A stretch of 32,035 bases of DNA, taken from a virus. Taxonomy: Duplodnaviria; Heunggongvirae; Uroviricota; Caudoviricetes. Where the stretch lies: the IMG/VR virus record IMGVR_UViG_2690316263_000015, positions 1-32,035 of that record; one strand, written 5' to 3'. The stretch's first letter is position 1. Every line of letters begins with the position of its first letter. The translations under genes were made by a program, and so were the position numbers. Positions 561-31,996 of this stretch are shown here, one piece after another. The notes beneath the pieces were generated by a model. The model was not told where the DNA came from. It worked only from the letters and a program-made list of their open reading frames with translations, and did no database searches.

Positions 561-1049
561 ATGAGTCTTTTGAATGACGTTCAGAAATTCATTGAAGCCC
601 ATCCGGGCTGTACTTCCGGAGACATTGCAGATGCTTTTGCTGGTTACTCACGGCAGCGCGTTCTGCAGTCAGCAAGCAAGTTACGTCAGAGTGGGCGTGT
701 GGCTCACCGTTGTGAAGGAGATACACGCAGACATTTCCCGCGCCTGACTGAGAGAGCGCAGGAGCCGGAACCACAATCTGTTCGTGAAACCAGACCTGTG
801 CGCAATTTCTATGTCGGCACTAACGATCCCCGGGTGATTTTGTGCCTGACCCGCCAGGCTGAAGAGCTGGAGTCCAGGGGCTTATACCGTCGTGCTGCAA
901 CGGTGTGGATGGCGGCATTCCGTGAAAGTCACTCCCAGCCAGAACGAAACAACTTTCTGGCGCGTCGAGAGCGGTGCTTACGGAAAAGCAGCAAGCGCGC
1001 TGTATCGGGTGATGAATGGTATCTGTCAGGGAATTACGTGGGGGCTTAA
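561..1049 (+). CDS. PerC-like transcriptional activator family protein
   Basis: ATG 561 preceded by GGGGG (551-555); the ORF-track GTG 555 start is less likely. C-terminal segment AEELESRGLYRRAATVWMAAF recalls the PerC-family signature; the N-terminal part looks like a small DNA-binding domain. Confidence 0.45.
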   Translation: MSLLNDVQKFIEAHPGCTSGDIADAFAGYSRQRVLQSASKLRQSGRVAHRCEGDTRRHFPRLTERAQEPEPQSVRETRPVRNFYVGTNDPRVILCLTRQAEELESRGLYRRAATVWMAAFRESHSQPERNNFLARRERCLRKSSKRAVSGDEWYLSGNYVGA

Positions 1050-1375
1050 TGACGACGTTAACTCAGTGTCAGCAGCAGGTGCTGGATATGCTGATTTCTT
1101 ATCAGAAAGAACGTGGCTTCCCGCCAACCAATCAGGAGGTGGCAACCATGCTGGGATACCGTTCAGTGAATGCAGCGGTGGAGCATCTTCGCGCACTGGA
1201 GAAAAAAGGCGTCATCACGATAAAGCGTGGCGTGGCCCGGGGCATCACGCTTCATACCGCGGTGAAGGACGACGACAGCGAGGCGGTCGGGATTATCCGC
1301 TCACTGCTTGCCGGTGAGGAAAACGCAAGGCTGCGTGCAACCCACTGGTTACATGAGAGGGGCCTGAAAGTATGA
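1049..1375 (+). CDS. LexA-type N-terminal DNA-binding domain protein (no peptidase domain)
   Basis: ATG 1049 overlaps the upstream stop (TAATG). LTQCQQQVLDMLISYQKERGFPPTNQEVATMLGYRSVNAAVEHLRALEKKGVI parallels the LexA winged-helix DNA-binding domain; protein ends after about 109 aa without the Ser/Lys autopeptidase domain. Confidence 0.6.
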   Translation: MTTLTQCQQQVLDMLISYQKERGFPPTNQEVATMLGYRSVNAAVEHLRALEKKGVITIKRGVARGITLHTAVKDDDSEAVGIIRSLLAGEENARLRATHWLHERGLKV

Positions 1376-1761
1376 AGCTGATCCTGCCTTTTCCGCCCAG
1401 CGTGAACACGTACTGGCGACACCCCAACAAAGGGGCGTTTGCTGGTAAGAGCCTGATAAGCGCGGCGGGGCGAAAATTCCAGAGCGCGGCGTGCGCAGCA
1501 ATAGTTGAGCAGTTACGTCGTCTGCCGAAACCAACGTCGGCACCTGCTTCAGTAGAGATTGTGTTGTTTCCTCCGGATAACAGGATCCGCGATCTGGACA
1601 ACTATAACAAGGCGCTGTTTGACGTTCTGACCCACGCGGGTGTGTGGGAAGACGACAGCCAGGTGAAAAGAATGCTGGTGGAGTGGGGACCGGTTATCCC
1701 GGAAGGGAAGGTCGAGATCACTATCAGTAAGTACGAGAAAACGGCGGGTGCAGACGCCTGA
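1372..1761 (+). CDS. rusA: RusA-family Holliday junction resolvase
   Basis: 129 aa; LPFPPSVNTYWRH ... RIRDLDNYNKALFDVLTHAGVWEDDSQV matches the RusA pattern including the catalytic acidic cluster; typical ninR-region position. Confidence 0.85.
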   Translation: MKLILPFPPSVNTYWRHPNKGAFAGKSLISAAGRKFQSAACAAIVEQLRRLPKPTSAPASVEIVLFPPDNRIRDLDNYNKALFDVLTHAGVWEDDSQVKRMLVEWGPVIPEGKVEITISKYEKTAGADA

Positions 1762-1780
1762 GCAAAAGGAGAAACGAAGT

Positions 1781-2590
1781 ATGAATAATCTGATGGTCAT
1801 TGATGGTATTGAAGTTCGTCGTGATGCTTATGGGCGTTACAGCCTGAACGATCTGCATCGTGCAGCAGTAGCATCTGGTGCAAATGCCAGAACCAAGGAG
1901 CCAGGAAAGTTTCTTTCCAGCCAACAAACTGTTGAACTTGTTCATGAATTGACCAACACCCAGAATTTGGGTGTTGACCCGGTGAGTGTGATTCATGGGG
2001 GAAATGAACGGGGAACTTATGTCTGCAAGGAACTGGTGTATGCCTATGCAATGTGGATCAGCCCGTCATTCCATCTGAAGGTGATCCGTACTTTCGATAT
2101 GGTAACCAGCGCACCGGAAAAATTATCCGGGCAGGCTGCTGACAAGATGCAGGCTGGAGTGATTCTGCTGGACTTTATGCGCCGGGAGTTAAATCTGTCT
2201 AACTCATCAGTGCTTGGTGCCTGTCAGAAACTTCAGGAGGCTGTTGGCTTACCGAATCTGGCACCGCGCTATGCCATTGATGCTCCTGCTGATGCACACG
2301 ATGGCTCAAGTCGCCCGACACTGTCACTGAGTGCACTGCTGAAACAGTATGGTATCCGCCTGACGGCTAATCAGGCATATCACCAGATGGTGAAGCTGGG
2401 GATCGTCGAGCAGCGTGAACGATACAGCCGTACCGCGATTAACAACATCAAAAAATTCTGGTCGCTGACAGCGAAAGGTTGCATGTTCGGCAAGAACATC
2501 ACCAGTCCCGCAAATCCGCGCGAGACGCAGCCGCATTTCTTCGAATCCCGATTCCCTGAGCTGTTAAAGCTGCTCGATACCGTTCATTGA
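1781..2590 (+). CDS. KilA-N domain protein (antirepressor-like)
   Basis: ATG 1781 preceded by AAGGAG. N-terminal MNNLMVIDGIEVR ... GTYVCKELVYAYAMWISPSFHLKVI is a KilA-N DNA-binding domain signature. Confidence 0.65.
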   Translation: MNNLMVIDGIEVRRDAYGRYSLNDLHRAAVASGANARTKEPGKFLSSQQTVELVHELTNTQNLGVDPVSVIHGGNERGTYVCKELVYAYAMWISPSFHLKVIRTFDMVTSAPEKLSGQAADKMQAGVILLDFMRRELNLSNSSVLGACQKLQEAVGLPNLAPRYAIDAPADAHDGSSRPTLSLSALLKQYGIRLTANQAYHQMVKLGIVEQRERYSRTAINNIKKFWSLTAKGCMFGKNITSPANPRETQPHFFESRFPELLKLLDTVH

Positions 2591-2591
2591 G

Positions 2592-3587
2592 GTGACCGTG
2601 AGAGCACTACTGACCCCTGAAATTGCCCCGCGTATGGGGATCGTATTGTTCAGGCCAGGTTCAGAGCTGATGCCCCTGTTTATGCAGGGGCGTGTCCTGC
2701 TGGAGCCTGAGCCGGAACGTTACTCATCTTTCGCCAGTGGTGCCGTTCCGGCGGCATCACAACCGCTGGCGGATGATCCTGCCGTTCGGGCCGTGTTCCG
2801 CAATGAGGCAGTGATCCGTCGTGCTGGTGGCGTGGAATGTCTTGAAAGCTGGTTACTTCGTGAAAAAGGCTGCCAGTGGCCTCATTCCGACTGGCACAGC
2901 GAGAACATGACCACAATGCGACACGCTCCGGGCGCAATCCGTCTGTGCTGGCACTGCGATAACCAGCTGCGCGATCAGTTCACGGAACGGCTGGAATCAA
3001 TGGCAACGGATAACTGTGCCCGCTGGGTGTTGTCTGTTGTGCGTCGGGATCTCGGTTTTGATGACAGTCACGTTGTGACAATGCCGGAACTGTGCTGGTG
3101 GCTGATTCGTAATGATCTGGCGGATGCCTTACCGGAAAGTGCAGCCCGTAAGGCACTGAGATTACCGAAGCCTGTTGTGCCATCTGTCACCCGGGAAAGT
3201 GACCTTGTGCCTTCGGTTCCTGCCACCAGCATCATCCAGGATAAAGCAAAAAAGGTGCTGGCGCTGAAAGTGGATCCGGAGTCGCCGGAGTCTTTTATGT
3301 TACGCCCAAAACGTCGCCGCTGGGTTAATGAAAAGTACACGCGCTGGGTTAAGACACAGCCGTGTGCATGTTGTGGAAAGCCCGCTGATGATCCCCACCA
3401 CCTGATAGGTCACGGTCAGGGTGGAATGGGAACAAAAGCGCATGACCTCTTTGTGTTGCCTTTGTGCAGAAAGCATCACGACGAGCTGCATGCGGATACC
3501 GTGGCATTTGAAGAGAAGTATGGCTCCCAGCTGGAGCTGATATTTCGTTTTATCGATCGTGCGCTGGCAATAGGCGTACTGGCGTAA
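2592..3587 (+). CDS. DUF968 (YdfU-like) protein with C-terminal Cys/His metal-binding motif
   Basis: 331-aa ORF; C-terminus CACCGKPADDPHHLIGHG ... LCRKHHDELH resembles DUF968 proteins found upstream of Q in lambdoid prophages. Start ambiguous (GTG 2592 or GTG 2598 after GAGGTG). Confidence 0.55.
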   Translation: MTVRALLTPEIAPRMGIVLFRPGSELMPLFMQGRVLLEPEPERYSSFASGAVPAASQPLADDPAVRAVFRNEAVIRRAGGVECLESWLLREKGCQWPHSDWHSENMTTMRHAPGAIRLCWHCDNQLRDQFTERLESMATDNCARWVLSVVRRDLGFDDSHVVTMPELCWWLIRNDLADALPESAARKALRLPKPVVPSVTRESDLVPSVPATSIIQDKAKKVLALKVDPESPESFMLRPKRRRWVNEKYTRWVKTQPCACCGKPADDPHHLIGHGQGGMGTKAHDLFVLPLCRKHHDELHADTVAFEEKYGSQLELIFRFIDRALAIGVLA

Positions 3588-3600
3588 GTGGAGAACGAGC

Positions 3601-4353
3601 ATGAACCTTGAAGCCTTACCGAAATATTACTCCCCAAAATCTCCAAAATTGAGCGATGACGCACCGACGACAGGCTCTGGTGGTTTAACAATTACGGATG
3701 TAATGGCTGCGCAGGGGATGGTGCAGTCGAAAGCACCGCTTGGGTTTGCCTTATTCCTGGCAAAAGTTGGTGTTCAGGATCCTCAATTTGCGATTGAAGG
3801 TCTGCTCAATTACGCGATGGCACTGGATAACCCGACATTGAACAAATTGAGTGAAGAAACCCGGTTACAGATCATCCCTTACCTTGTGAATTTTGCCTTT
3901 GCTGATTATTCCAGGTCTGCGGCAAGTAAGGCTCGCTGTGAGCATTGTGCTGGTACTGGATTTCATAATGTATTGCGCGAAGTGGTGAAACACTCCAGAA
4001 GCGGGGAATCTGTTATCAAGGAAGAGTGGGTGAAGGAACTATGTCAGCATTGTCATGGTAAGGGAGAAGTCAGCACAGCGTGCAGAGGGTGTAAGGGTAA
4101 AGGTATTGTCCTGGATGAAAAAAGGACCCGGCTTCATGGCACGCCTGTTTATAAGATTTGTGGGCGTTGCAATGGAAACCGGTTTAGCCGTTTACCAACC
4201 ACACTGGCGCGGCATCATGTCCAGAAGCTGGTACCAGACCTGACAGATTATCAGTGGTACAAAGGATATGCAGATGTCATTGATAAACTGGTTACAAAGT
4301 GCTGGCAGGAAGAAGCATATGCTGAGGCGCAATTAAGAAAAGTGACGAGATAA
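3601..4353 (+). CDS. antitermination protein Q-like late-gene regulator
   Basis: ATG 3601 after GGAGAA. 250 aa with paired Cys motifs (CEHCAGTG ... CQHCHGKG ... CRGCKGKG ... CGRCNG) as in Q-family antiterminators; followed by a promoter plus terminator pair. Confidence 0.7.
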   Translation: MNLEALPKYYSPKSPKLSDDAPTTGSGGLTITDVMAAQGMVQSKAPLGFALFLAKVGVQDPQFAIEGLLNYAMALDNPTLNKLSEETRLQIIPYLVNFAFADYSRSAASKARCEHCAGTGFHNVLREVVKHSRSGESVIKEEWVKELCQHCHGKGEVSTACRGCKGKGIVLDEKRTRLHGTPVYKICGRCNGNRFSRLPTTLARHHVQKLVPDLTDYQWYKGYADVIDKLVTKCWQEEAYAEAQLRKVTR

Positions 4354-4384
4354 ATGATTTTCGCCGAAGATGGCGACATAATGC

Positions 4385-4413
4385 TTGCATTTTTCAAAAA
4401 ATATGGATAAGAT
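4385..4413 (+). promoter_or_regulatory. putative Q-dependent late promoter (PR'-like)
   Basis: TTGCAT (4385-4390), 17-nt spacer, TAAGAT (4408-4413), about 30 nt downstream of the Q stop and about 45 nt upstream of an intrinsic terminator. The arrangement mimics lambda PR'/tR'. Confidence 0.35.
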
Positions 4414-4458
4414 TTTTCCAACGATGGGCTTTGTATGTCTACCGTTGATAAGATTTAA

Positions 4459-4486
4459 GAACCCGCCACTGAGCGGGTTTTTTTAT
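4459..4486 (+). terminator. intrinsic terminator (tR'-like)
   Basis: ACCCGC-cactga-GCGGGT stem-loop followed by a T7-8 run (aacccgccactgagcgggttttttta). Confidence 0.6.
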
Positions 4487-4606
4487 GCCTGAAAAACGGT
4501 ACAGGACGTTAAACGCGCTGGTGGTTGCGAATATTGGTCTTTCGGCTTGTATTTTTGTAAATCGATATATACTTATCTTGTGACCAGTAATGTCAGGGCA
4601 ATTGAT

Positions 4607-5350
4607 ATGAATGAAGCTTGTTCTGTTGTTTTTGTTCATTCCCCGTTTGTTGTGCTCTTTGAAGGAAAAGAGCTCTCTCTGGAAAGTGGTAGTGCACTTC
4701 TTGTCAGGGGGGGAGCTGGATCGTTATTGCCCTTTTCGGAATGTTTTCGGCGAATAAGTCTCAGTGAATCGACAATTATCCGTTACCTGTTGTGTGGAGA
4801 CGAAAAACAGGATGTAGTTTTAGTCCGGCAAATACCACGATATCTTTGCGTGAGTTTTCCCAAGGCAGAATTGATGGGCATCCTGATTGATTATCTTTGT
4901 GAGGAAAAGATTCATACGGACAATTTAGCGGAAATGCTTTCCTTTTCGTGTCTGGCGTTTTTCTCATCAGAGAAAATGTTTTCGTCGTTTCTGACCGCGT
5001 GTATTGGCAATATTAGTGACAGGCTTAGTGCATTGTTTCGTACGGACATTGCAGCAAACTGGACTCTGAGAGATGTGTCTTCGCGGTTATGTATCAGTGA
5101 AAGTTTGTTAAAAAAAAGACTGAAAGAAGAAGGCACCTGTTTCAGTGAGTTGTTGCTTACAGAGAGAATGAGAATGGCAGCAATGCTGTTGAATCAATCT
5201 CGTTGCGCCATCAACAGAATCGCTGCTCAGTGTGGCTATAATTTTACATCTTATTTTATCAGCGTATTCAGGAGTTATTTTGGTGTTACACCGGCAGGTT
5301 ACAGGATGGCTGCATTCAATGAGATGAGTTTAAGTGTTACTCAAGAATAA
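4607..5350 (+). CDS. AraC-family transcriptional regulator, AppY/EnvY-like (moron)
   Basis: ATG 4607. C-terminal double helix-turn-helix (WTLRDVSSRLCISESLLKKRLKEEGTCFSELLLTERMRMAAMLL ... AAQCGYNFTSYFISVFRSYFGVTPAGY); the N-terminal CSVVF motif recalls AppY. Gene is visibly AT-rich relative to neighbours and followed by its own terminator. Confidence 0.8.
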   Translation: MNEACSVVFVHSPFVVLFEGKELSLESGSALLVRGGAGSLLPFSECFRRISLSESTIIRYLLCGDEKQDVVLVRQIPRYLCVSFPKAELMGILIDYLCEEKIHTDNLAEMLSFSCLAFFSSEKMFSSFLTACIGNISDRLSALFRTDIAANWTLRDVSSRLCISESLLKKRLKEEGTCFSELLLTERMRMAAMLLNQSRCAINRIAAQCGYNFTSYFISVFRSYFGVTPAGYRMAAFNEMSLSVTQE

Positions 5351-5374
5351 TTGAATTTTGCACTCATTGAAAAC

Positions 5375-5399
5375 AGGCTCGCTGCGGCGGGCCTTTTTT
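5375..5399 (+). terminator. intrinsic terminator after the AraC-family gene
   Basis: AGGCTCGC-tgcg-GCGGGCCT hairpin followed by TTTTTTAT. Confidence 0.55.
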
Positions 5400-5537
5400 A
5401 TATCCGCGCCACGTCCGGCGCACATCAAAAAAACCACAGAGCCTTTCAGGGGTGAGCTTACGGGATGGTCAGTGTGACTTTCTCTGTGGGCTGGTCACCC
5501 CCGGGCGCAGGCTCACCCACTAAAAGGAAAAGTCACG

Positions 5538-23608: not shown

Positions 23609-24653
23609 ATTTCAGCGCCCGACGCTGGCAGAAAATATCAGTATGCTCCGTAACGATGTATTCGCCAGGCTGGACGTCAGCGACACGCTCCGGCGCATGG
23701 ATGAAGACGTGCGGGCAAAGGTGTATGCGGCGGCGCTGCATACGGTTTACGGTTACATCGATTATCTGGCAATGAACATGCTGCCTGACCTGTGCGATGA
23801 GTCCTGGCTGGCGCGACATGCTGCGATGAAACGGTGTCCGCGCAAGGGGGCCACGGCTGCCAGCGGGTATATGCGCTGGGGAGGTGTCAGCGATGGCCTG
23901 AAGGTGACTGCCGGGAGCGTGATTCAGCGCGATGACCTGGTTCAGTACACGGCAACTGCTGATGCAACCAGCTCCGGTGGTGTCCTGCGCGTGCCGATCA
24001 CTTGCTCAAGTGCAGGCGCGGTCGGTAACGCTGACGACGGTACGGCATTAATCCTGGTCACGCCGGTGAATGGTCTGCCGTCTTCCGGTGTTGCAGATAC
24101 CCTGACTGGCGGATTCGATACTGAAGATCTGGAAACGTGGCGCGCCCGCGTCATTGAGCGGTATTACTGGACGCCTCAGGGCGGGGCTGACGGGGACTAT
24201 GTCGTCTGGGCTAAAGAAGTGCCCGGCATTACCCGCGCATGGACATACCGTCACTGGATGGGAACGGGAACTGTCGGTGTGATGATTGCCAGCAGTGACC
24301 TGATTAATCCCATTCCGGAAGAATCAACGGAAACGGCGGCAAGACAACACATTGAGCCACTGGCCCCGGTGGCAGGCTCTGATTTGTATGTATTCAGGCC
24401 GGTGGCACATACGGTGGATTTTCATATCCGCGTGACGCCGGACACACCGGAAATACGGGCTGCCATCACCGCGGAGTTGCGTTCGTTCCTGCTGCGTGAT
24501 GGTTATCCGCAGGGAGAACTGAAGGTATCGCGTATCAGTGAGGCGATTTCCGGTGCGAACGGGGAATACAGCCATCAGTTGCTTGCACCAGCAGACAATA
24601 TCTCCATTGCGAAAAATGAACTGGCGGTTCTGGGGGCGATTTCATGGACGTGA
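23595..24653 (+). CDS. baseplate J-like protein (Mu gp47-like)
   Basis: 352 aa; size and position match baseplate J. Confidence 0.75.
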
Positions 24654-25228
24654 CAAACGATGATTACATCCGTCTGTTGTCGGCACTGCTGCCCCCTGGT
24701 CCGGCGTGGTCAGCCAGCGATCCGGCGATTGCCGGTGCGGCACCGTCATTAACCCGCGTTCATCAGCGTGCGGATGCCCTGATGCGGGAGCTGGATCCGC
24801 GCACCACCACCGAACTGATAAATCGCTGGGAGCGTCTGTGCGGCCTGCCGGATGAATGTATTCCCGCAGGGACACAGACCCTTCGCCAGCGTCAGCAACG
24901 ACTGGATGCGAAGGTTAACCTGGCGGGCGGCATCAACGAGGATTTTTACCTTGCACAGCTTGCTGCCCTGGGCAGACCAGACGCTACCATCACGCGATAC
25001 GACAAAAGCACGTTCACCTGCTCATCGGCCTGTACTGACGCGGTGAATGCGCCGGAATGGCGGTATTACTGGCAGGTCAACATGCCAGCCGCCACCAACA
25101 CCACCTGGATGACATGTGGCGATCCCTGTGATTCCGCACTGCGTATCTGGGGCGACACCGTTGTCGAGTGCGTGCTTAACAAACTCTGCCCGTCGCATAC
25201 CTACGTAATTTTTAAATATCCGGAGTAA
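24644..25228 (+). CDS. tail protein, DUF2313 / Mu gp48-like (YmfQ-like)
   Basis: 194 aa, Cys-containing C-terminus; located between baseplate J and the tail fibre, as in Mu-like and e14-type modules. Confidence 0.65.
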
Positions 25229-25231
25229 TCC

Positions 25232-26059
25232 ATGCATCGTATAGACACGAAAACCGCGCAGAAGGATAAGTTCGGCGCGGGTAAGAACGGTTTTACCCGT
25301 GGTAACCCCCAGACTGGCACGCCTGCCACCGATCTGGATGATGACTACTTTGACATGTTGCAGGAAGAACTTTGTAGCGTGGTGGAGGCATCCGGTGCCA
25401 GTCTGGAGAAGGCGCGGCACGACCAGCTGCTTACCGCGCTTCGTGCGCTGCTGTTAAGCCGCAAGAATCCGTTTGGCGATATCAAATCGGATGGCACGGT
25501 GAAAACGGCTCTCGAAAACCTTGGTTTGGGAGAAGGTTCAGCATTACCCGTTGGCGTGCCTGTTCCGTGGCCTTCCGCCACTCCGCCAACAGGCTGGCTG
25601 AAATGCAACGGTGCCGCTTTTTCTGCAGAAGAATACCCGGAACTGGCAAAGGCTTACCCGACCAATAAATTGCCTGATTTACGCGGTGAATTTATTCGTG
25701 GCTGGGATGATGGACGTGGAGTGGATGCGGGGCGAGCCTTGCTAAGTCTTCAGGATGACTCTTTTGAAGCTCACAGACATGAGTCCTTTTTTTACGCGGG
25801 TATTTCACGCAATGAAACACCATTAAAAAATCTTCCAAGTTCAGACGAGATGCTGACTTTAAGTTCCACAACTAATGCCTTGTCCCCGGACAGTATTGAT
25901 GCCACCAATTCGTTAATTGGTAATGATGATTACAACTGTCTGATTGAAGGAAATAAAAATAACAAACGAACGGCAACGGGGTTGAGTACCAGTATTGTCG
26001 GTGCAGCAGAGACACGCCCACGTAATATTTCATTTAATTACATTGTGAGGGCTGCATGA
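25232..26059 (+). CDS. tail fibre protein: constant N-terminal part fused to the currently expressed variable C-terminal part with a tail-collar-like receptor-binding region
   Basis: ATG 25232 after GGAG. N-terminus [29 protein letters not shown] typical of Mu S / side-tail-fibre N-termini; collar-like motif [33 protein letters not shown]; crossover site inside the gene at 25509-25534. Confidence 0.8.
25509..25534. repeat. left recombination site of invertible segment (hix/gix-like, 26 bp)
   Basis: CTCTCGAAAACC-TT-GGTTTGGGAGAA resembles Hin/Gin crossover sites and is an imperfect inverted repeat of 27459-27484. Confidence 0.6.
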
Positions 26060-26661
26060 TGTATAACGCCATCTTAAATAATAAATTTATTGCCACAAAG
26101 GCAGGAGAGATTACCGTTTATAACTATGACAGTGAGACACGGGAGTATATTTCTGCATCAATTGAATATCTTGCTGTGGGTGTCGGTATCCCCGCATATT
26201 CCTGTTTAGATGCTCCTGGCACACATAAGGTTGGTTATGCAATCTGCCGTTCGGCAGATTTAAACTCATGGGAATATGTGCCAGACCATCGCGGTGAAGT
26301 TGTCTATAACACCGAAACGGGAGAATCAAAAGAAATCACAGCTCCGTGTGATTACCCTGAAAATACAACCACTATCGTCCCGTTAACGCCATACGATAAA
26401 TGGGATGGTGAGAAATGGGTGACAGATACTGAGGCACAGCATAGTGCCGCAGTAGACGCGGCAGAAGCACAGCGCCAGTCGCTGATTGATGCTGCAATGG
26501 CTTCCATCAGTCTGATTCAACTGAAATTACAGGCCGGGCGGAAGCTGACGCAGGCAGAAACAACCCGACTTAACGCCGTGCTGGATTACATTGACGCGGT
26601 GACGGTAACAGATACCAGCACCGCGCCGGATGTCATCTGGCCTGAACTGCCGGAGGCGTAG
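26056..26661 (+). CDS. tail fibre assembly protein (Tfa)
   Basis: 201 aa, ATGA-coupled to the fibre gene; the C-terminal region ([62 protein letters not shown]) is a typical Tfa chaperone domain. Confidence 0.75.
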
Positions 26662-27076
26662 GCCATTCAATATCGGGGGCTGTTGAAGTATCAACACGCA
26701 TCAGCAGCACACGGTATTTCTTCCATTGGGTGAGAGTTGAAGTTTCTTCATCAGTTGCAATGCCCGCATCAACAGCATCCTGACGCCAGGATATTTCACT
26801 GTCAGCTTTTGCACGAAATGTGGCTTTCATGTTTTCTGCATCTGATATTTTCTGTTCTGGTGAAAGCGGCGGCTCATCAACCCATGCAAGGGCCCCTGAA
26901 ACCATTCCCAGCATTTTTCCTGTTGGCTTATTTCCCCCATTAAATCTGACAGCATCCTCATCGCTGATTTCAATACCATCCTGCGGCCATGTCCCCTCCT
27001 TGATATAACTTTCGTATAGCGCTGCGTTGTAGATTGCATTTTCGGAAGGGCTGTAAACACTTTTAACTTTATTCAT
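26633..27076 (-). CDS. alternative tail fibre assembly protein (Tfa')
   Basis: 147 aa on the minus strand; the C-terminal region (SPEQKISDAENMKATFRAKADSEISWRQDAVDAGIATDEETSTLTQWKKYRVLLMRVD) parallels the Tfa chaperone domain. SD GGGAGA upstream of ATG. Convergent with tfa, 3' ends overlapping 26633-26661. Confidence 0.7.
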   Translation of the reverse strand: MNKVKSVYSPSENAIYNAALYESYIKEGTWPQDGIEISDEDAVRFNGGNKPTGKMLGMVSGALAWVDEPPLSPEQKISDAENMKATFRAKADSEISWRQDAVDAGIATDEETSTLTQWKKYRVLLMRVDTSTAPDIEWPTPPAVQAR

Positions 27077-27080
27077 TCTG

Positions 27081-27458
27081 TTATCTCCCTTTCGCTATAT
27101 AGCAAAGATTAAACCCACCGCTACCTGACATACGGGCTGTAAAACCCGTTCTTGAAGTACCAGTTGAGTTAACTCCATAAGCAGGCATGGTTGTTGGAGA
27201 AAGCAGAGACTCCTGGATATCTGCCATTGTCAGTGTAATTGATTCGACCCGCGCGGGGAAAGGTAGCGGGAAAACAACATTCGTCCCTGTCTGTCCAACG
27301 GGGAAACCGAAAATACCCCATTGTGTAATTACCCCATCCGGCCCCTTACTCCATCCAGATTTAGGATTCGGCCAGTCTGCTGCTCCAGAGTGCCCCGTTG
27401 TAAAACTACTCATATCTGGTACTTGCCCGGTATCCGTTCCGACGTTCCTCGTTGCCGC
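27081..27458 (-). CDS. alternative promoterless tail-fibre C-terminal segment (Sv'-like), expressed only after inversion
   Basis: Minus-strand frame is open from the right crossover site to TAA (27081-27083), 4 nt before tfa'; it shares the crossover-encoded GLGE junction with the fibre gene. The N-terminal 'MMPFARY' part of the ORF-track call lies across the recombination site and is probably not coding. Confidence 0.6.
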   Translation of the reverse strand, partial: AATRNVGTDTGQVPDMSSFTTGHSGAADWPNPKSGWSKGPDGVITQWGIFGFPVGQTGTNVVFPLPFPARVESITLTMADIQESLLSPTTMPAYGVNSTGTSRTGFTARMSGSGGFNLCYIAKGR

Positions 27459-27484
27459 TTCTCCCAAACCAACGTTTATGAAAA
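27459..27484. repeat. right recombination site of invertible segment (hix/gix-like, inverted)
   Basis: Its reverse complement TTTTCATAAACG-TT-GGTTTGGGAGAA matches the left site over the GGTTTGGGAGAA half-site and the central TT. Confidence 0.6.
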
Positions 27485-27538
27485 TGCAGAAATAACGAGC
27501 AAATGGCATCATTCCTGCTTTTGTCAGGGGGATCTACC

Positions 27539-27667
27539 ATGCTTATTGGCTATGTACGCGTATCAACAAATGACCAGAACACAGATCTACAACGTAATGC
27601 GCTGAACTGTGCAGGATGCGAGCTGATTTTTGAAAACAAGATAAGCGGTACAAAGTCCGAGACCTAG
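27539..27667 (+). pseudogene. Pin/Gin/Hin-family serine DNA invertase, truncated after about 40 codons
   Basis: MLIGYVRVSTNDQNTDLQRNALNCAGCELIFENKISGT matches the invertase N-terminus nearly residue for residue (catalytic Ser in VRVSTNDQ), then diverges (KSET) and stops at TAG 27665-27667. The remainder of the gene is absent from the window. Confidence 0.8.
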
Positions 27668-27714
27668 GGCTGACATTGCTGTTCTTGATGCAAATTAAAG
27701 TATTTAATAGTGAG

Positions 27715-27742
27715 TAGCGGCCTTACTAAGGTAAGGCCGCTA
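27715..27742. other. perfect 12-bp stem hairpin at the prophage/islet junction (possible bidirectional terminator or recombination scar)
   Basis: TAGCGGCCTTAC-taag-GTAAGGCCGCTA; lies between the invertase remnant and the 3' end of the minus-strand DUF262 gene; no clean T-run on either side. Confidence 0.35.
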
Positions 27743-27762
27743 TAATCATTTTATTAATTGCA

Positions 27763-29712
27763 TTAATCGTGTTTTGGCCATACTTTCAATGCAATTTCCC
27801 CCAACTTTTTACCCCGCTCCAGGATTTCATCCTCATCCCATTTATCCTTAACTATAAGTGGAATGTTCAGTCGTAGATTGGTGTGGACGATGAGAGCATC
27901 ACGTTTTTTCAGAAATACAGCATTCTGAACAGAACGGTTTACGCTAAGGTTAAGCAAAGTTAGATTTCCCAAAGTAGCTATCGCTTGTTGCCGTTTCCTT
28001 ACCAGTAGCTGTTCAGGGGTAAGATCGGTTCCAGACAGAACAATTTGGTTCAATACCGTAGCATCTGAATTTGTCACCATACGACCATTTTCGAGAGGCC
28101 AACAGGAATACCAACTTTGGGGCATAAGATGATCGATATCGAGATTAGAAAGATTTGGAACATCAGGCTTTTCGGTCTTCACTTGGCGACAAAGTTCTCT
28201 TTCAAGTTCCGTTAACATTGAGCGCATTTTCGGTGCGTCGAGCCTGCCAGGATAAAGTGGAGCATTGATGCAAGCGTTGAGAAATTCTGAGTCACCAGGC
28301 CAACGTGAGGCTTCGCCATTTAAGTTATTGAGGATATTACGTAACTCAACACTGGAAATTTCCGTTTTAGCCAAGTGCCGCAATACATTCATAAATACAT
28401 TGTTGTAATTCTTTGGCGTCAGGCCACATACGGCTCTTCGTACTACGTAGGAGACAAGATCATTATACATGACTGCTTTCTCATCATCAGCGATGTTAGC
28501 TATCGAAATGAACAAAGCAAGCGGATAAAGTGTCGTCACATCATAGTCTGCGATGCGATATCCAAAGTGTGAGATGGGGGTTGTGCCAAAACCATCAACC
28601 AATTCTTTATATTGTAATGCATATTGTTTGAGGCGCTTTACTTGCAGATCTGCTCGTTGTGAAGACAAGTCCTTACTTACATAATCACGATACTCATTGT
28701 AAAGACGAGACAGATCAATTTCACGCTGCCTTTCTGATTGCAATGTCGCATGTACTAGCCACTCCATGCGTGGTTTATTAATACGTCCACGGCGTTGTTT
28801 TTCCGACCAGTATTTATCTTCAAAGCTCTTCCACTCATTTTCATATAATTCAATAGCATTAATATTTTCATGCTCTGCGCACATAAAGATATAGTTGCGA
28901 ATAAGATCCGTAGCATGAAGTTCCGCCCCTCGCCCATTTAATGTTTCAAAAATTATTTGGGCATCATCTTCAGCTTCGAGAAATATGCTTACCAGTTTCA
29001 GATCTGTTAAGACAGCCTCAATTAGAGCTACAGCATTTTCTTGTGGTGAGTGGTTTTCTATTTTAATCCATTTTATAAAGGCTTTAGTAAAAAAACATAA
29101 TGCTTCTAGTGATGGCGGGTGATTAAAACGCTTACGCAACGTACCATGCTGCGTGAAACTATCAGAGAATACGTCCCGGAGATCGTCAATCTTTTCAACA
29201 TTAAAACTTTGAATAAAATGAGTTTGATCCCGAAAAGTTGGCCACAGTTTGAAGCGTTCTACTTCTTTATTTCGCATTGTGTCTTCGTTTGAGTTTTTCA
29301 GGCAAGGCGAAATGAGAGCCTCTAAGCTGGAAAGATCCGTAGCACGTAATGCTAATCGGATGGATGCCAGAACATATTGAAGAGTGGTCAATCGTTGCTG
29401 ACCATCAATAATATGTATGGAATCTACACCTAATAATCCTTTTTTTGATTGAGGTTCCAGTACAACCGCACCAAGGAAATGGGGAGTTGGTTTTGTACCC
29501 GAGAGCCGGGATTGTGCTTTCTCTAGGATATCCTCCAGTAGAGCTGACCATTGGTCTTGCTGAGTCCATACATAGGCACGTTGATAGAATGGAACACAGT
29601 ATTGTCGGCGGTCTTGAAAAAGTTGTTGGACAGTTAGCGTCTCGGATTTCATGGTATACCTGTAAGCGACATTGTACAAAAGTGAGGAGTTAATCTGATT
29701 TAGAACAATCAT
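27763..29712 (-). CDS. DUF262-DUF1524 nuclease, GmrSD-like (type IV modification-dependent restriction candidate)
   Basis: 649-aa minus-strand ORF. N-terminal DUF262 motifs (FYQRAYVWTQ, IIDGQQRLTTL, FETLNGRGAELHATDLIRNY) and C-terminal DUF1524 His-Me finger (DIDHLMPQSW, GNLTLLNLSVNRSVQN). Likely true start at internal ATG 29652 (MKSETL). Gene is AT-rich. Confidence 0.8.
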   Translation of the reverse strand: MIVLNQINSSLLYNVAYRYTMKSETLTVQQLFQDRRQYCVPFYQRAYVWTQQDQWSALLEDILEKAQSRLSGTKPTPHFLGAVVLEPQSKKGLLGVDSIHIIDGQQRLTTLQYVLASIRLALRATDLSSLEALISPCLKNSNEDTMRNKEVERFKLWPTFRDQTHFIQSFNVEKIDDLRDVFSDSFTQHGTLRKRFNHPPSLEALCFFTKAFIKWIKIENHSPQENAVALIEAVLTDLKLVSIFLEAEDDAQIIFETLNGRGAELHATDLIRNYIFMCAEHENINAIELYENEWKSFEDKYWSEKQRRGRINKPRMEWLVHATLQSERQREIDLSRLYNEYRDYVSKDLSSQRADLQVKRLKQYALQYKELVDGFGTTPISHFGYRIADYDVTTLYPLALFISIANIADDEKAVMYNDLVSYVVRRAVCGLTPKNYNNVFMNVLRHLAKTEISSVELRNILNNLNGEASRWPGDSEFLNACINAPLYPGRLDAPKMRSMLTELERELCRQVKTEKPDVPNLSNLDIDHLMPQSWYSCWPLENGRMVTNSDATVLNQIVLSGTDLTPEQLLVRKRQQAIATLGNLTLLNLSVNRSVQNAVFLKKRDALIVHTNLRLNIPLIVKDKWDEDEILERGKKLGEIALKVWPKHD

Positions 29713-30544: not shown

Positions 30545-31465
30545 TTATGATAGACCGTAGTATTTTTTCAGAGCCGCTGTAGCTGCTTGAGTTGCAGCAG
30601 CTATTCCTATGCCCAAAGTACCATGGGCTGCTTTACTCGCAATATTTGCCAACCATTTACTAACAGATTGACCATATTCACCACGTTTGTTAGCTATCGG
30701 GCCATCTTCACCAATAGCAATTTCTAAATCGTTAACATCAGATTTAGGGAACCCCTGAGCTGAGAGAAACTCTTTTAATGACTCAGTGTCGTTTTTTACG
30801 ACGTGGTTATTCACAGAAAATGAGTTTTCATTTCCGAAGTTTATGACAGTATTGTCTCCAAAAATTGAGTTATGGAATAATGAAGACGTGTCGATATTTT
30901 TAAGTTTTTCTGTCATGTTTTTCTCATCTGGTATTTCAGAAACTTGATCAGAAAGTTCAAGTATAAAATCAAGTAGCCGTGACCTGACCTGAGTTAAGAT
31001 GGAAGTAAAGTTATGTAGTGCGATCTCTTTATAACAGCGTGTTAACTCATAGCCTTTATCGATACCTTTGCAGTACTTAACTAACGCGTAATCTAAAGGA
31101 ATTGGCTGCTGAAGAGCATGGCTATCACCAGCATTGGTTACTAGTTCTTCGATTTGACTGATTGAAAGCCTCACATTACTGGTTGTAGCATCTTCATAGT
31201 CATCTTCACTTAGATAGCCAATCGGTAACGGAAAAGCTCTATATAGGCGAACGCCGTTGTTCAGATCTGCAAGAATTCTTGTGCCAACAATTCTATAATC
31301 TGGAAGGGAAACTGAATCAGGATAACCGTTTATCTCATGATTTACCCATGCAGCAAGCTCCTTTTTCCCGATAGAGAAAAGAAGGATCTTCGTTTTTATG
31401 AGAGCATTTGTTGTGCCTTCATCACCAGTACTTAGTATCTGAATGATTTCTTGCAGTTGGTTCAT
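30545..31465 (-). CDS. abortive-infection-like protein (AbiTii-type N-terminal domain suspected)
   Basis: 306-aa minus-strand ORF. N-terminus (LQEIIQILSTGDEGTTNALIKTKILLFSIGKKELAAWVNHEINGY) resembles AbiTii-domain proteins as I recall them; C-terminus has an Ala/Gly-rich amphipathic tail. AT-rich. Family call unverified. Confidence 0.45.
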   Translation of the reverse strand: MNQLQEIIQILSTGDEGTTNALIKTKILLFSIGKKELAAWVNHEINGYPDSVSLPDYRIVGTRILADLNNGVRLYRAFPLPIGYLSEDDYEDATTSNVRLSISQIEELVTNAGDSHALQQPIPLDYALVKYCKGIDKGYELTRCYKEIALHNFTSILTQVRSRLLDFILELSDQVSEIPDEKNMTEKLKNIDTSSLFHNSIFGDNTVINFGNENSFSVNNHVVKNDTESLKEFLSAQGFPKSDVNDLEIAIGEDGPIANKRGEYGQSVSKWLANIASKAAHGTLGIGIAAATQAATAALKKYYGLS

Positions 31466-31633: not shown

Positions 31634-31996
31634 TGGTGGAGCTGGCGGGAGTTGAACCCGCGTCCGAAATTCCTACATCCTCGGTACTACATGCTTAGTC
31701 AGTCTTTACATTCGCTTGCCAGCTGCGGACGGACACGCCACTAACAAACTAGCCTGATTAAGTTTTAACGCTTCAACCCCAGGCAGGGCTTCCACGCGAT
31801 CTCTTTTGGGTTTGACCTCTCTTGATCCCCGTCCTAAGAGCGGAGGCTAGGGAGAGAGGGCTCTAAGCAGGTTATTAAGCTGCTAAAGCGTAGTTTTCGT
31901 CGTTTGCGACTATTTTTTGCGGCTTTTTACGAGGCCAACCGCCCCTCGGCATGCACCTTGGGTTTCGCAAATCCCGTCGAATCCAGAATCAGCCCC
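31634..31996 (-). ncRNA. ssrA: tmRNA (transfer-messenger RNA, SsrA)
   Basis: Reverse complement reads GGGGCTGATTCTGGATTCGACGGG ... GGACGCGGGTTCAACTCCCGCCAGCTCCACCA, 363 nt, with the tag reading frame GCAAACGACGAAAACTACGCTTTAGCAGCTTAA (ANDENYALAA) at 31875-31907. Confidence 0.95.

Follow-up and report, generated by a model that had tools for sequence, protein, structure and literature searches.

The window (the whole 32,035-nt stretch of DNA that was analyzed) very probably carries the P segment of a prophage of the e14 family, i.e., a Din-type (Pin/Gin/Cin/Hin) inversion switch in the tail-fibre operon, and the interpretation offered by the first-pass annotation is supported. This system is already known and the feature is an ordinary one. 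In the window, both crossover sites and the predicted recombinational enhancer are retained, whereas the adjacent invertase gene is reduced to a short remnant. The locus is thus unable to flip by itself, although related loci with the same truncation are found in both orientations.

The left 26-bp crossover site, of the pixL type, lies at 25509-25534 (CTCTCGAAAACC TT GGTTTGGGAGAA) and the right site, of the pixR type, at 27459-27484 (TTCTCCCAAACC AA CGTTTATGAAAA). Each is identical to a site of K-12 e14 (positions 2779-2804 and 4606-4631, respectively, of our K-12 locus, L004), and the left sequence also occurs at eight other loci. The architecture is that of the Din family: the sites are inverted relative to one another, each is made up of a 2-bp core flanked by imperfect half-sites of 12 bp, and the cores, TT on the left and AA on the right, are the same upon inversion. 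The two sites had been described from the letters alone as inverted and imperfect copies. Indeed, they present 21/26 identity once one of them is reverse-complemented and, besides their identity to e14, differ little from gix of Mu and cix of P1. A repeat search returned an inverted repeat of 20 nt, 95% complementary, at 25516-25535 and 27458-27477. The similarity between the two 26-mers is significant, as the 15-mer TTGGTTTGGGAGAAG, common to both sites, is present in exactly two copies in the 32-kb window, one per strand, where 0.08 are expected in shuffled sequence and none of 100 shuffles reached two. A Din-type 26-bp consensus, derived from the sites of Mu and P1 and searched with three mismatches allowed, matched only these two sites in the window, with 0.01 matches expected. 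A multi-site shufflon like p15B Min was therefore rejected, as the consensus search yielded two sites only. Both sites fit the consensus given in PMC4134206 and are conserved at 26/26 positions across all loci examined, except for one mismatch in locus L011. The sites stand far above chance and, as judged by these sequence comparisons, are genuine Din-family crossover sites.

The invertible segment, measured between the two central dinucleotides, spans 1950 bp (25522-27471), in agreement with the approximately 1.95 kb noted at first pass. When the window is compared with E. coli genomes and phages, the matching stretches start and stop at these positions, and a flip at these boundaries reproduces natural genomes. 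The segment lies between the ymfQ-type baseplate gene (24644-25228; PF10076 Phage_Mu_Gp48, Mu gp48-like), which precedes the fibre gene, and pin, with the same gene order as in K-12 e14 and its relatives. The expressed tail-fibre gene (25232-26059, + strand) encodes 275 aa and is composed of a constant N-terminal part, Sc, outside the segment (25232-25521, + strand) and a variable part, Sv, which contains a phage Tail Collar domain (PF07484, E 1.6e-15, aa 108-155). This fibre shares 68% identity with StfP2, the K-12 protein obtained by flipping e14. The left site is found inside this ORF, at the codons for LGLGEG. On the minus strand, the silent variable part, Sv' (27081-27471), encodes a gp53-like C-terminal domain (PF21882, E 2.2e-10 on the in-silico fusion). 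The minus-strand ORF is extended across the right site by a short leader outside the segment (27472-27512, MMPFARYFCIFINVGLGE), the counterpart of the K-12 stfE/stfE2 start (StfE2 is described in PMC12529663). The full minus-strand ORF (27081-27512) is in frame across the right site in both orientations and reads ...VGLGEAATR there, so that the GLGE junction proposed for the alternative segment is confirmed. When the segment was flipped in silico at the central dinucleotides, the 101-aa Sc, a prefix common to the current and flipped fibres, was joined in frame to the minus-strand module, yielding a fibre of 226 aa. Of these residues, 224/226 match CDSs annotated in 19SZHZ663Rt and GPEC1189, which are natural flipped genomes. 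The proposed swap of the C-terminus by inversion is thus borne out by two in-frame fusions, of 275 and 226 aa, the second of which exists in natural genomes.

As for expression, a consensus scan of 24500-28000 yielded no sigma70-like promoters, where 4.8 were expected, and hence no internal promoter for the silent module, although this should be regarded as weak negative evidence. As no promoter is evident within the segment, the fibre would be expressed only from the module facing the constant part.

Each variable part is accompanied by its own tail-fibre assembly chaperone gene. The tfa gene cognate to the expressed Sv (26056-26661, + strand) encodes a TfaE-type protein of 201 aa (PF02413, Caudo_TAP, E 1.6e-30) with 89% identity to K-12 TfaE. 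The silent alternative, tfa' (26633-27076, - strand), encodes 147 aa (PF02413, E 7.1e-33); its product shares 29% identity overall with K-12 TfaP, yet carries the same 13-residue C-terminal tail. The arrangement, with Sv and tfa encoded on one strand and their counterparts Sv' and tfa' on the opposite one, is thus as the first-pass annotation read it, and the minus-strand frames encode fibre-like and Tfa-like proteins, as judged by their PF21882 and PF02413 matches. The two convergent tfa genes overlap at their 3' ends by 29 nt (26633-26661). The overlap itself had been noted correctly, but its description as unusual was wrong, since the same overlap, nearly invariant in sequence, is found in K-12 e14, B1S11, H22, UTI89 and the P2-like phages 500465-1 and P2(T22). 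It is a standard arrangement of e14-type and P2-type cassettes.

The invertase gene remnant, pin (27539-27667, + strand), consists of 42 codons followed by TAG and covers profile positions 2-47 of 145 of the resolvase N-terminal domain (PF00239). Its homology to full-length pinE stops at about nt 122-124 of 555, such that ~78% of the gene length is lost, and the equivalent remnant is annotated in RefSeq as a partial recombinase pseudogene. What a Din system would have here, a gene for a small serine invertase that combines the resolvase-type catalytic domain with an HTH at the C-terminus, is thus absent, as the remnant contains no HTH domain, and no other recombinase is present within the 32-kb window. 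With a stump of ~42 codons as the adjacent invertase gene, self-sufficient inversion is not to be expected. The retained 5' end nonetheless includes the predicted equivalent of the Fis-dependent recombinational enhancer (27557-27628), which corresponds to the annotated P1 enhancer, cin nt 19-90, and is 100% identical to K-12 pinE. Two matches to the Fis consensus are found here, at 27561-27575 and 27609-27623, 48 bp apart, and pin, gin and cin all carry such matches at equivalent positions. The consensus used, KNNYRNNWNNYRNNM, and the 48-bp spacing reportedly go back to Hübner and Arber in 1989 and to the Johnson laboratory. The proximal match lies 96.5 bp from the centre of the right site. 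In the Hin system, the enhancer is likewise ~100 bp from a site (PMC3798978). At the sequence level, the enhancer that the first-pass annotation proposed to look for in this 5' end is therefore present, in cis and ~100 bp from the nearer site.

In place of the lost 3' part of the invertase gene sits a type IV restriction gene of the GmrSD family (DUF262/DUF1524; 27763-29712, - strand; PF03235, E 3.1e-34; PF07510, E 4.6e-20), which is a neighbour of the switch rather than one of its components. A direct repeat near the truncation point (27134-27155 and 27667-27688), having 73% identity, was judged to be due to chance and not evidence of a deletion mechanism. GmrSD and AbiTii defence genes adjoin the switch. 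The structural module of the prophage is complete, running from terminase to baseplate with Mu-like baseplate genes, and the switch lies at the prophage end. A tmRNA (31634-31996) was the sole Rfam match in an RNA-element search of the region, and the same tmRNA was found by ARAGORN.

The mechanism proposed for this locus borrows its strand-exchange chemistry and Fis dependence from the Din family. Each 26-bp site would be bound by one serine invertase dimer, and the two sites would pair on the Fis-bound enhancer ~100 bp from the right site. At the central TT/AA dinucleotides, all four strands would be cut, turned by 180 degrees and rejoined, inverting the 1950-bp segment, while the 101-aa N-terminus would be read from the upstream late operon. 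In the window state, the constant N-terminus would be joined to the Collar-domain tip and served by the TfaE-type chaperone; in the flipped state, it would be joined to the gp53-like tip, with the second chaperone. The invertase gene lost ~78% of its length when the GmrSD gene took over, whereas both sites and the predicted enhancer are intact. What is left is an orphan substrate that nothing but a Din-family invertase encoded at another place in the genome could flip, and the enzyme serving the window's segment would thus probably be one acting in trans.

Of 5426 complete E. coli genomes, 288 (~5%) share the pin truncation/GmrSD junction seen in the window. At least 67 of these 288 carry the segment flipped relative to the window, a count that relies on coverage thresholds applied to clonally related genomes. 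Natural flipped forms were found with intact pinE and also with truncated pin. When the UTI89 locus is flipped in silico, it equals the EC9682 locus with no mismatches over 10,978 bp, and both contain the truncated gene. SOI121 and 20KM0223N were considered as a second exact flip pair and rejected, given the many differences left after flipping; these two genomes indicate that the cassette type occurs in both orientations, and nothing more. As the truncated lineage includes both orientations, with UTI89 and EC9682 differing by an exact inversion, the orphaned segments still flip, presumably via an invertase supplied in trans. Inversion in trans is a mechanism already published: PinQ and PinR, acting in trans, can flip the P segment of e14 (Kirigo et al. 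2025, PMC12529663), and in the EC958 prophage Phi4, where the invertase is truncated, the segment still inverts (PMC4134206). Inversion of e14 has also been seen in MG1655 cultures (PMC4272514).

A potential source of such an enzyme is common, as sequence similar to the 3' part of pinE is found in 4690 of 5426 E. coli genomes (~86%). A candidate helper is found in IHE3034, which is both flipped and truncated: a P2-like prophage of this strain encodes a Din invertase of full length. Further pinE-like sequence was found in 8/11 flipped as compared with 15/46 non-flipped strains (Fisher p = 0.02, for 57 related and non-independent strains). Three of the flipped strains (PMV-1, GN06489 and GN06758) contain none at blastn sensitivity, such that their helper would be a more distant enzyme or one since lost. 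In UTI89, the region 2,495,001-2,545,000, selected as a second pin-like place by a synteny guess from IHE3034, contains housekeeping genes only, and the genome paper on MS7163 does not mention the locus. The window's own copy may be frozen, since the window contains no invertase.

On this alternative, the switch would be a relic, invertible in the ancestor but in this genome locked in the Collar/TfaE orientation, with the invertase gene destroyed, no compatible enzyme at hand, and sites and enhancer that have simply not decayed. We consider this unlikely. It is true that pin retains no more than about 122 of its 555 nt, that the 32-kb window offers no other recombinase and that 31/46 of the non-flipped truncated strains sampled lack other pinE-like sequence at the blastn level. 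Such a relic is, however, difficult to reconcile with both orientations being present in the truncated lineage, including the exact flip between otherwise identical 11-kb loci, with the at least 67 of 288 truncated genomes that are flipped, or with sites that have kept all 26 positions at every locus save for the L011 mismatch. The ~86% of E. coli genomes with sequence similar to the pinE 3' part (4690/5426) speak against the lack of an enzyme, as does the finding that the more distant PinQ and PinR also act on the P segment (PMC12529663). Orientation differences could instead be explained by RecA-dependent recombination between the 20-bp inverted repeats, or by assembly artefacts, yet this we find hardly credible. 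Wherever a crossover took place within the 15 bp that the repeats have in common, its product would indeed be indistinguishable from that of a crossover at the core. Stretches of 15-20 bp are, however, far shorter than the length efficiently used by RecA, and the flipped forms come from at least 67 independent assemblies. Moreover, a single mismatch in the outer half of a site keeps its place in flipped genomes, and the exchange therefore lies inside the site. The repeats also match exactly the experimentally defined Din crossover sites, and inversion of the K-12 P segment, with identical 26-bp sites, depends on Pin enzymes (PMC12529663).

A different view of what the switch is for can also be taken. 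The deletion might have spared the sites and the Fis enhancer because these were kept by selection for the use of host invertases, with the orphan now serving as a host-operated, phase-variable anti-phage switch. Inversion would then chiefly toggle the minus-strand ORF that starts at 27512, in the window's orientation the counterpart of StfE2, as a surface or decoy protein. In K-12, StfE2 (leader plus gp53-like domain) is reported to block adsorption of phage T2, and inversion of the segment is reported to be driven in trans by PinQ and PinR (Kirigo et al., PMC12529663). The window's ORF (27081-27512) is in frame both ways, it shares the leader MPFA.YF.IFINVGLGE with K-12, and the deletion ends ~40 bp beyond the distal Fis-consensus match. 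Nonetheless, the gp53-like part of the window is only ~31% identical to K-12 StfE2, the consensus scan revealed no promoter-like site for the minus strand, and retention of the enhancer could be a matter of chance in a single deletion event. As the structural module of this prophage is complete, ordinary fibre switching would suffice. We thus regard such domestication as improbable, even more so than a locked relic. If it were true, invertases of other prophages would be driving an orphan switch beside GmrSD and AbiTii defence genes, rather than a decaying host-range switch.

The locus being a textbook system, the chief value of its analysis is that such loci can be annotated correctly. In RefSeq, what is called a 'gp53-like domain-containing protein' on the minus strand and what is called a 'recombinase family protein' pseudogene are parts of one switch and not independent genes, and assemblies of strains with this locus may present either orientation. 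A single pin truncation is common to 288 complete genomes, with sites and enhancer intact and the segment flipped since. This offers a natural demonstration that Din substrates can outlast their own enzyme and be serviced in trans, as was proposed for EC958 Phi4 and shown for PinQ and PinR in K-12. Should phage adsorption depend on the fibre or the short chimeric ORF in ST95 or other ExPEC lineages, orientation would be a phenotypic variable to record.

The comparison with the Mu G segment, the P1 C segment and e14, suggested at first pass, reveals the same logic throughout, with sites identical to those of e14. The closest relative is the P segment of K-12 e14 with its invertase PinE, reportedly described by Plasterk and van de Putte in 1985 (as cited in PMC4272514). 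The 26-bp sites do not differ at all, and the two loci share the flanking genes (a ymfQ-type gene upstream and pin downstream), the constant fibre N-terminus and the 29-nt tfa overlap; the chaperone is of the TfaE type (89% identity), and the 5' end of pin shows no difference as far as the enhancer extends. The two differ in that the window's pin breaks off near nt 122 and GmrSD is the next gene, whereas K-12 has mcrA there. The second module of the window (gp53-like tip and 147-aa Tfa) shares ~30% identity with K-12 StfP/TfaP, the distal part of the Collar tip differs, and the segment is 1950 bp as compared with 1827 bp. The window prophage is structurally complete and located at ssrA, whereas K-12 e14 is at icd.

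The Mu G segment/Gin and P1 C segment/Cin systems likewise provide Sc with either of two partners, Sv or Sv', which have separate chaperones (U and U', respectively), possess 26-bp sites (gix and cix) with an AAACC-NN-GGTTT core and carry the enhancer within the first ~90 nt of the invertase gene. Their segments are, however, 3-4.2 kb long, with long fibres and an intact invertase, and the U and U' genes are 28 nt apart, whereas the tfa genes of the window overlap. EC958 Phi4 (ST131; Forde et al. 2014, PMC4134206) also presents an invertible tail-fibre segment beside a severely truncated invertase gene. Both orientations were found there in PacBio reads, from which the authors infer inversion in trans (PMC4134206). 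Phi4 is, however, another prophage, with gix-like sites (TTATCGAATACCTCGGTTTACAGGAA) and a 3106-bp segment, and its inversion was observed within one culture, whereas for the window we rely on genome comparison. Finally, Salmonella Hin/hix shares the enzyme family and an enhancer with two Fis sites ~100 bp from one site, and here too a helper, the invertase Fin of prophage Fels-2, is described as acting in trans (Kutsukake 2006, as cited in PMC12529663 and PMC4272514). Hin, however, flips a promoter, whereas the segment in the window is a cassette of coding sequence.

The fibre region of the window (25232-27667) comprises five coding elements. On the plus strand, a 275-aa ORF (25232-26059) carries a phage Tail Collar domain (Pfam PF07484, E 1.6e-15), and its end is overlapped by a 201-aa ORF (26056-26661) of the tail-fibre assembly family (PF02413, E 1.6e-30). 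The minus strand encodes a 147-aa member of the same family (26633-27076, E 7.1e-33) and a 143-aa module with a gp53-like C-terminal domain (27081-27512; PF21882, E 2.2e-10), while the fifth element, a plus-strand stump of 42 codons (27539-27667), is a match to the resolvase catalytic domain (PF00239) over its first 47 positions. Upstream are genes for a Mu gp48-like protein (24644-25228; PF10076), Mu-type baseplate proteins, sheath, tape measure, capsid, portal and terminase; the prophage is structurally complete, and these genes form its late operon. Sigma70-like promoters, searched on both strands of 24500-28000, gave 0 matches as compared to 4.8 expected from shuffles, in keeping with a cassette that lacks a promoter and is read from the late operon. 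The early, regulatory part of the prophage (1748-5350) encodes a KilA-N protein, a DUF968/HNH protein, a Q-type antiterminator and an AraC-family regulator (4547-5350) that may be cargo.

The first-pass annotation had placed 26-bp crossover sites on both sides of the cassette, and their coordinates proved exact: the left site, CTCTCGAAAACC TT GGTTTGGGAGAA, is found at 25509-25534 and the right site, TTCTCCCAAACC AA CGTTTATGAAAA, at 27459-27484. With one site inverted, 21 of the 26 positions are identical, and both sites fall within a 20-nt inverted repeat that is 95% complementary. A 15-mer common to both occurs twice in the 32 kb (0.08 copies expected; none of 100 shuffles reached two), and when the window was searched with a 26-bp consensus built from the Mu and P1 sites, these two sites alone matched (0.01 expected), indicating a simple two-site switch. 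The sites share the AAACC-NN-GGTTT architecture with Mu gixL/R and P1 cixL/R, as positioned by the annotation of the Mu and P1 records, and conform to the consensus for Din crossover sites that Forde et al. reproduce (PMC4134206). The sites flanking the invertible P segment of the E. coli K-12 element e14 are identical to both window 26-mers. Among ten loci compared, the sole site variant is the left site of the 20KM0223N locus (4510-4535 of that locus; a flipped genome with truncated pin), where one substitution gives GGTTTTGGAGAA instead of GGTTTGGGAGAA.

To predict the outcome of inversion, we flipped the 1950-bp segment in silico, placing each cut in the middle of the core dinucleotide. 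This joins the first 101 codons of the Collar ORF to the minus-strand module, yielding a 226-aa protein, of which 224 residues are identical in annotated coding sequences of 19SZHZ663Rt and GPEC1189, where the same segment points the other way with respect to the ymfQ-type gene and the invertase gene pin. The in-frame swap of fibre tips proposed earlier thus has natural counterparts. Matches to the window in other E. coli genomes and in P2-like, P1-like and other phages are bounded by the sites (25510 or 25516, and 27477), so the cassette is exchanged as a module.

The invertase itself is a remnant. In an alignment with pinE of K-12 and B1S11, gin of Mu and cin of P1, the window tracks pinE from the right site as far as nt 122-124, out of 555 in the full gene, and departs from it beyond that point. 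The presence of an enhancer in this retained 5' end, an idea raised in the first-pass annotation, was borne out at the sequence level: the Cin enhancer annotated in the P1 record spans cin nt 19-90, and its equivalent here (27557-27628) is 100% identical to K-12 pinE. The Fis consensus KNNYRNNWNNYRNNM, reportedly due to Hübner & Arber 1989, matches nt 23-37 and 71-85 in each of pin, gin and cin, corresponding to 27561-27575 and 27609-27623, 48 bp apart, in the window. A distance of 96.5 bp separates the proximal match from the site centre, in agreement with the native enhancer spacing of "about 100 bp" in the Hin system (PMC3798978). Judged by sequence, the cis elements are complete and the enzyme is gone. 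While mcrA directly follows pin in e14, exactly that place is taken here by a GmrSD-family type IV restriction gene (27763-29712, minus strand; PF03235 and PF07510), whose presence coincides with loss of the invertase 3' part. Between the remnant and the 3' end of this gene lies a strong hairpin (27714-27743; GC-rich 13-bp stem followed by a T-rich tail), probably a terminator brought in with the GmrSD module. The GmrSD gene is separated from a complete tmRNA gene (ssrA; 31634-31996, minus strand) by an AbiTii-domain gene (30545-31465, minus strand; PF18864, E 3e-33), and GmrSD and AbiTii make up a small cluster of defence genes where the prophage ends. The position of ssrA at the window's end places this prophage at ssrA; in relatives, the same tail, P segment and GmrSD module is found at icd (H22, SOI121) or beside ydfV/flxA (GPEC1189), so that prophages at three chromosomal sites share one module.

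Segments next to a truncated pin nonetheless occur in both orientations. The truncation junction (window 27472-27871) was found, at a coverage of >=80%, in 288 of 5426 complete E. coli genomes. A synthetic query joining the inverted Collar-module start, the remnant and the GmrSD end, for which 80% coverage is attainable only by genomes both truncated and flipped, matched 67. Three cassette variants carry the truncation, each in both orientations: the window versus GPEC1189, H22/SOI121 versus 20KM0223N/MEI148-20EC, and UTI89/S88 versus EC9682/IHE3034. When the 10,978-bp locus of UTI89 is turned around in silico at the core dinucleotides, it shows 0 mismatches to that of EC9682, and this is decisive evidence that orphan segments flip. 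The single mismatch between the two sites, in the outer half-sites, keeps its position in flipped genomes, so exchange takes place inside the site, as expected of conservative site-specific recombination.

No second recombinase is encoded in the 32-kb window, and sequences like the pinE 3' part, absent from the remnant, occur in 4690 of 5426 genomes. The principle of inversion in trans is already documented in the literature: the e14 segment is inverted by PinQ and PinR of other cryptic prophages (PMC12529663), Phi4 of EC958 inverts despite a truncated invertase (PMC4134206), and cultures of MG1655 show inversion of e14 (PMC4272514). In the truncated and flipped strain IHE3034 (ST95), a P2-like prophage (818-5439 of the compared locus) has its own Mu-G-like invertible fibre segment and encodes a Din-type recombinase of full length (199 aa), which is a candidate for the helper of the orphan segment there. 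In a sample of 57 strains with a GmrSD gene identical to that of UTI89, a further pinE-like place was found in 8 of 11 flipped genomes and 15 of 46 others (Fisher p = 0.02), an association that is only suggestive given the clonal kinship of the sample. Three flipped genomes of this sample have no such place, so the helper can be more distant, or lost since.

RefSeq labels the minus-strand ORF 27081-27512 as a "gp53-like domain-containing protein" in its own right. Its ATG lies outside the segment (leader MMPFARYFCIFINVGLGE), and its frame continues across the right site whichever way the segment points. As oriented in the window, the ORF corresponds to K-12 StfE2, which reportedly blocks T2 adsorption (PMC12529663). 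That the orphan switch is maintained for host benefit through this ORF seems to us improbable.

The convergent tfa genes overlap by 29 nt (26633-26661), as the first-pass annotation held, although its description of the overlap as unusual did not stand. While U and U' of Mu and P1 are separated by a 28-nt gap, the identical 29-nt arrangement is annotated in K-12 e14 (tfaP/tfaE), B1S11, H22 and UTI89, as well as in the P2-like phages 500465-1 and "P2" of strain T22, and is thus a conserved trait of the cassette family rather than an oddity of the window. The central ~65 nt are nearly invariant across these loci, and outside them the partner chaperone genes divide by sequence into two families; the overlap arises because the seven-residue tail of the partner Tfa (PPAVQAR) extends into the end of the TfaE-type gene. 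The tfa genes of the IHE3034 P2-like prophage have a 28-nt gap, like Mu.

Taken as a whole, the locus shows every feature tested for an e14-type P segment, and every one tested for a Din inversion system apart from an invertase of its own, which upholds the earlier reading as an invertible tail-fibre segment. The system type is not new, the feature being already known, and near-identical loci are annotated in RefSeq. Compared with K-12 e14, the window differs in its second module, only ~30% identical, in the distal part of its Collar tip, in its truncated pin with GmrSD in place of mcrA, and in belonging to a structurally complete prophage that is integrated next to ssrA.
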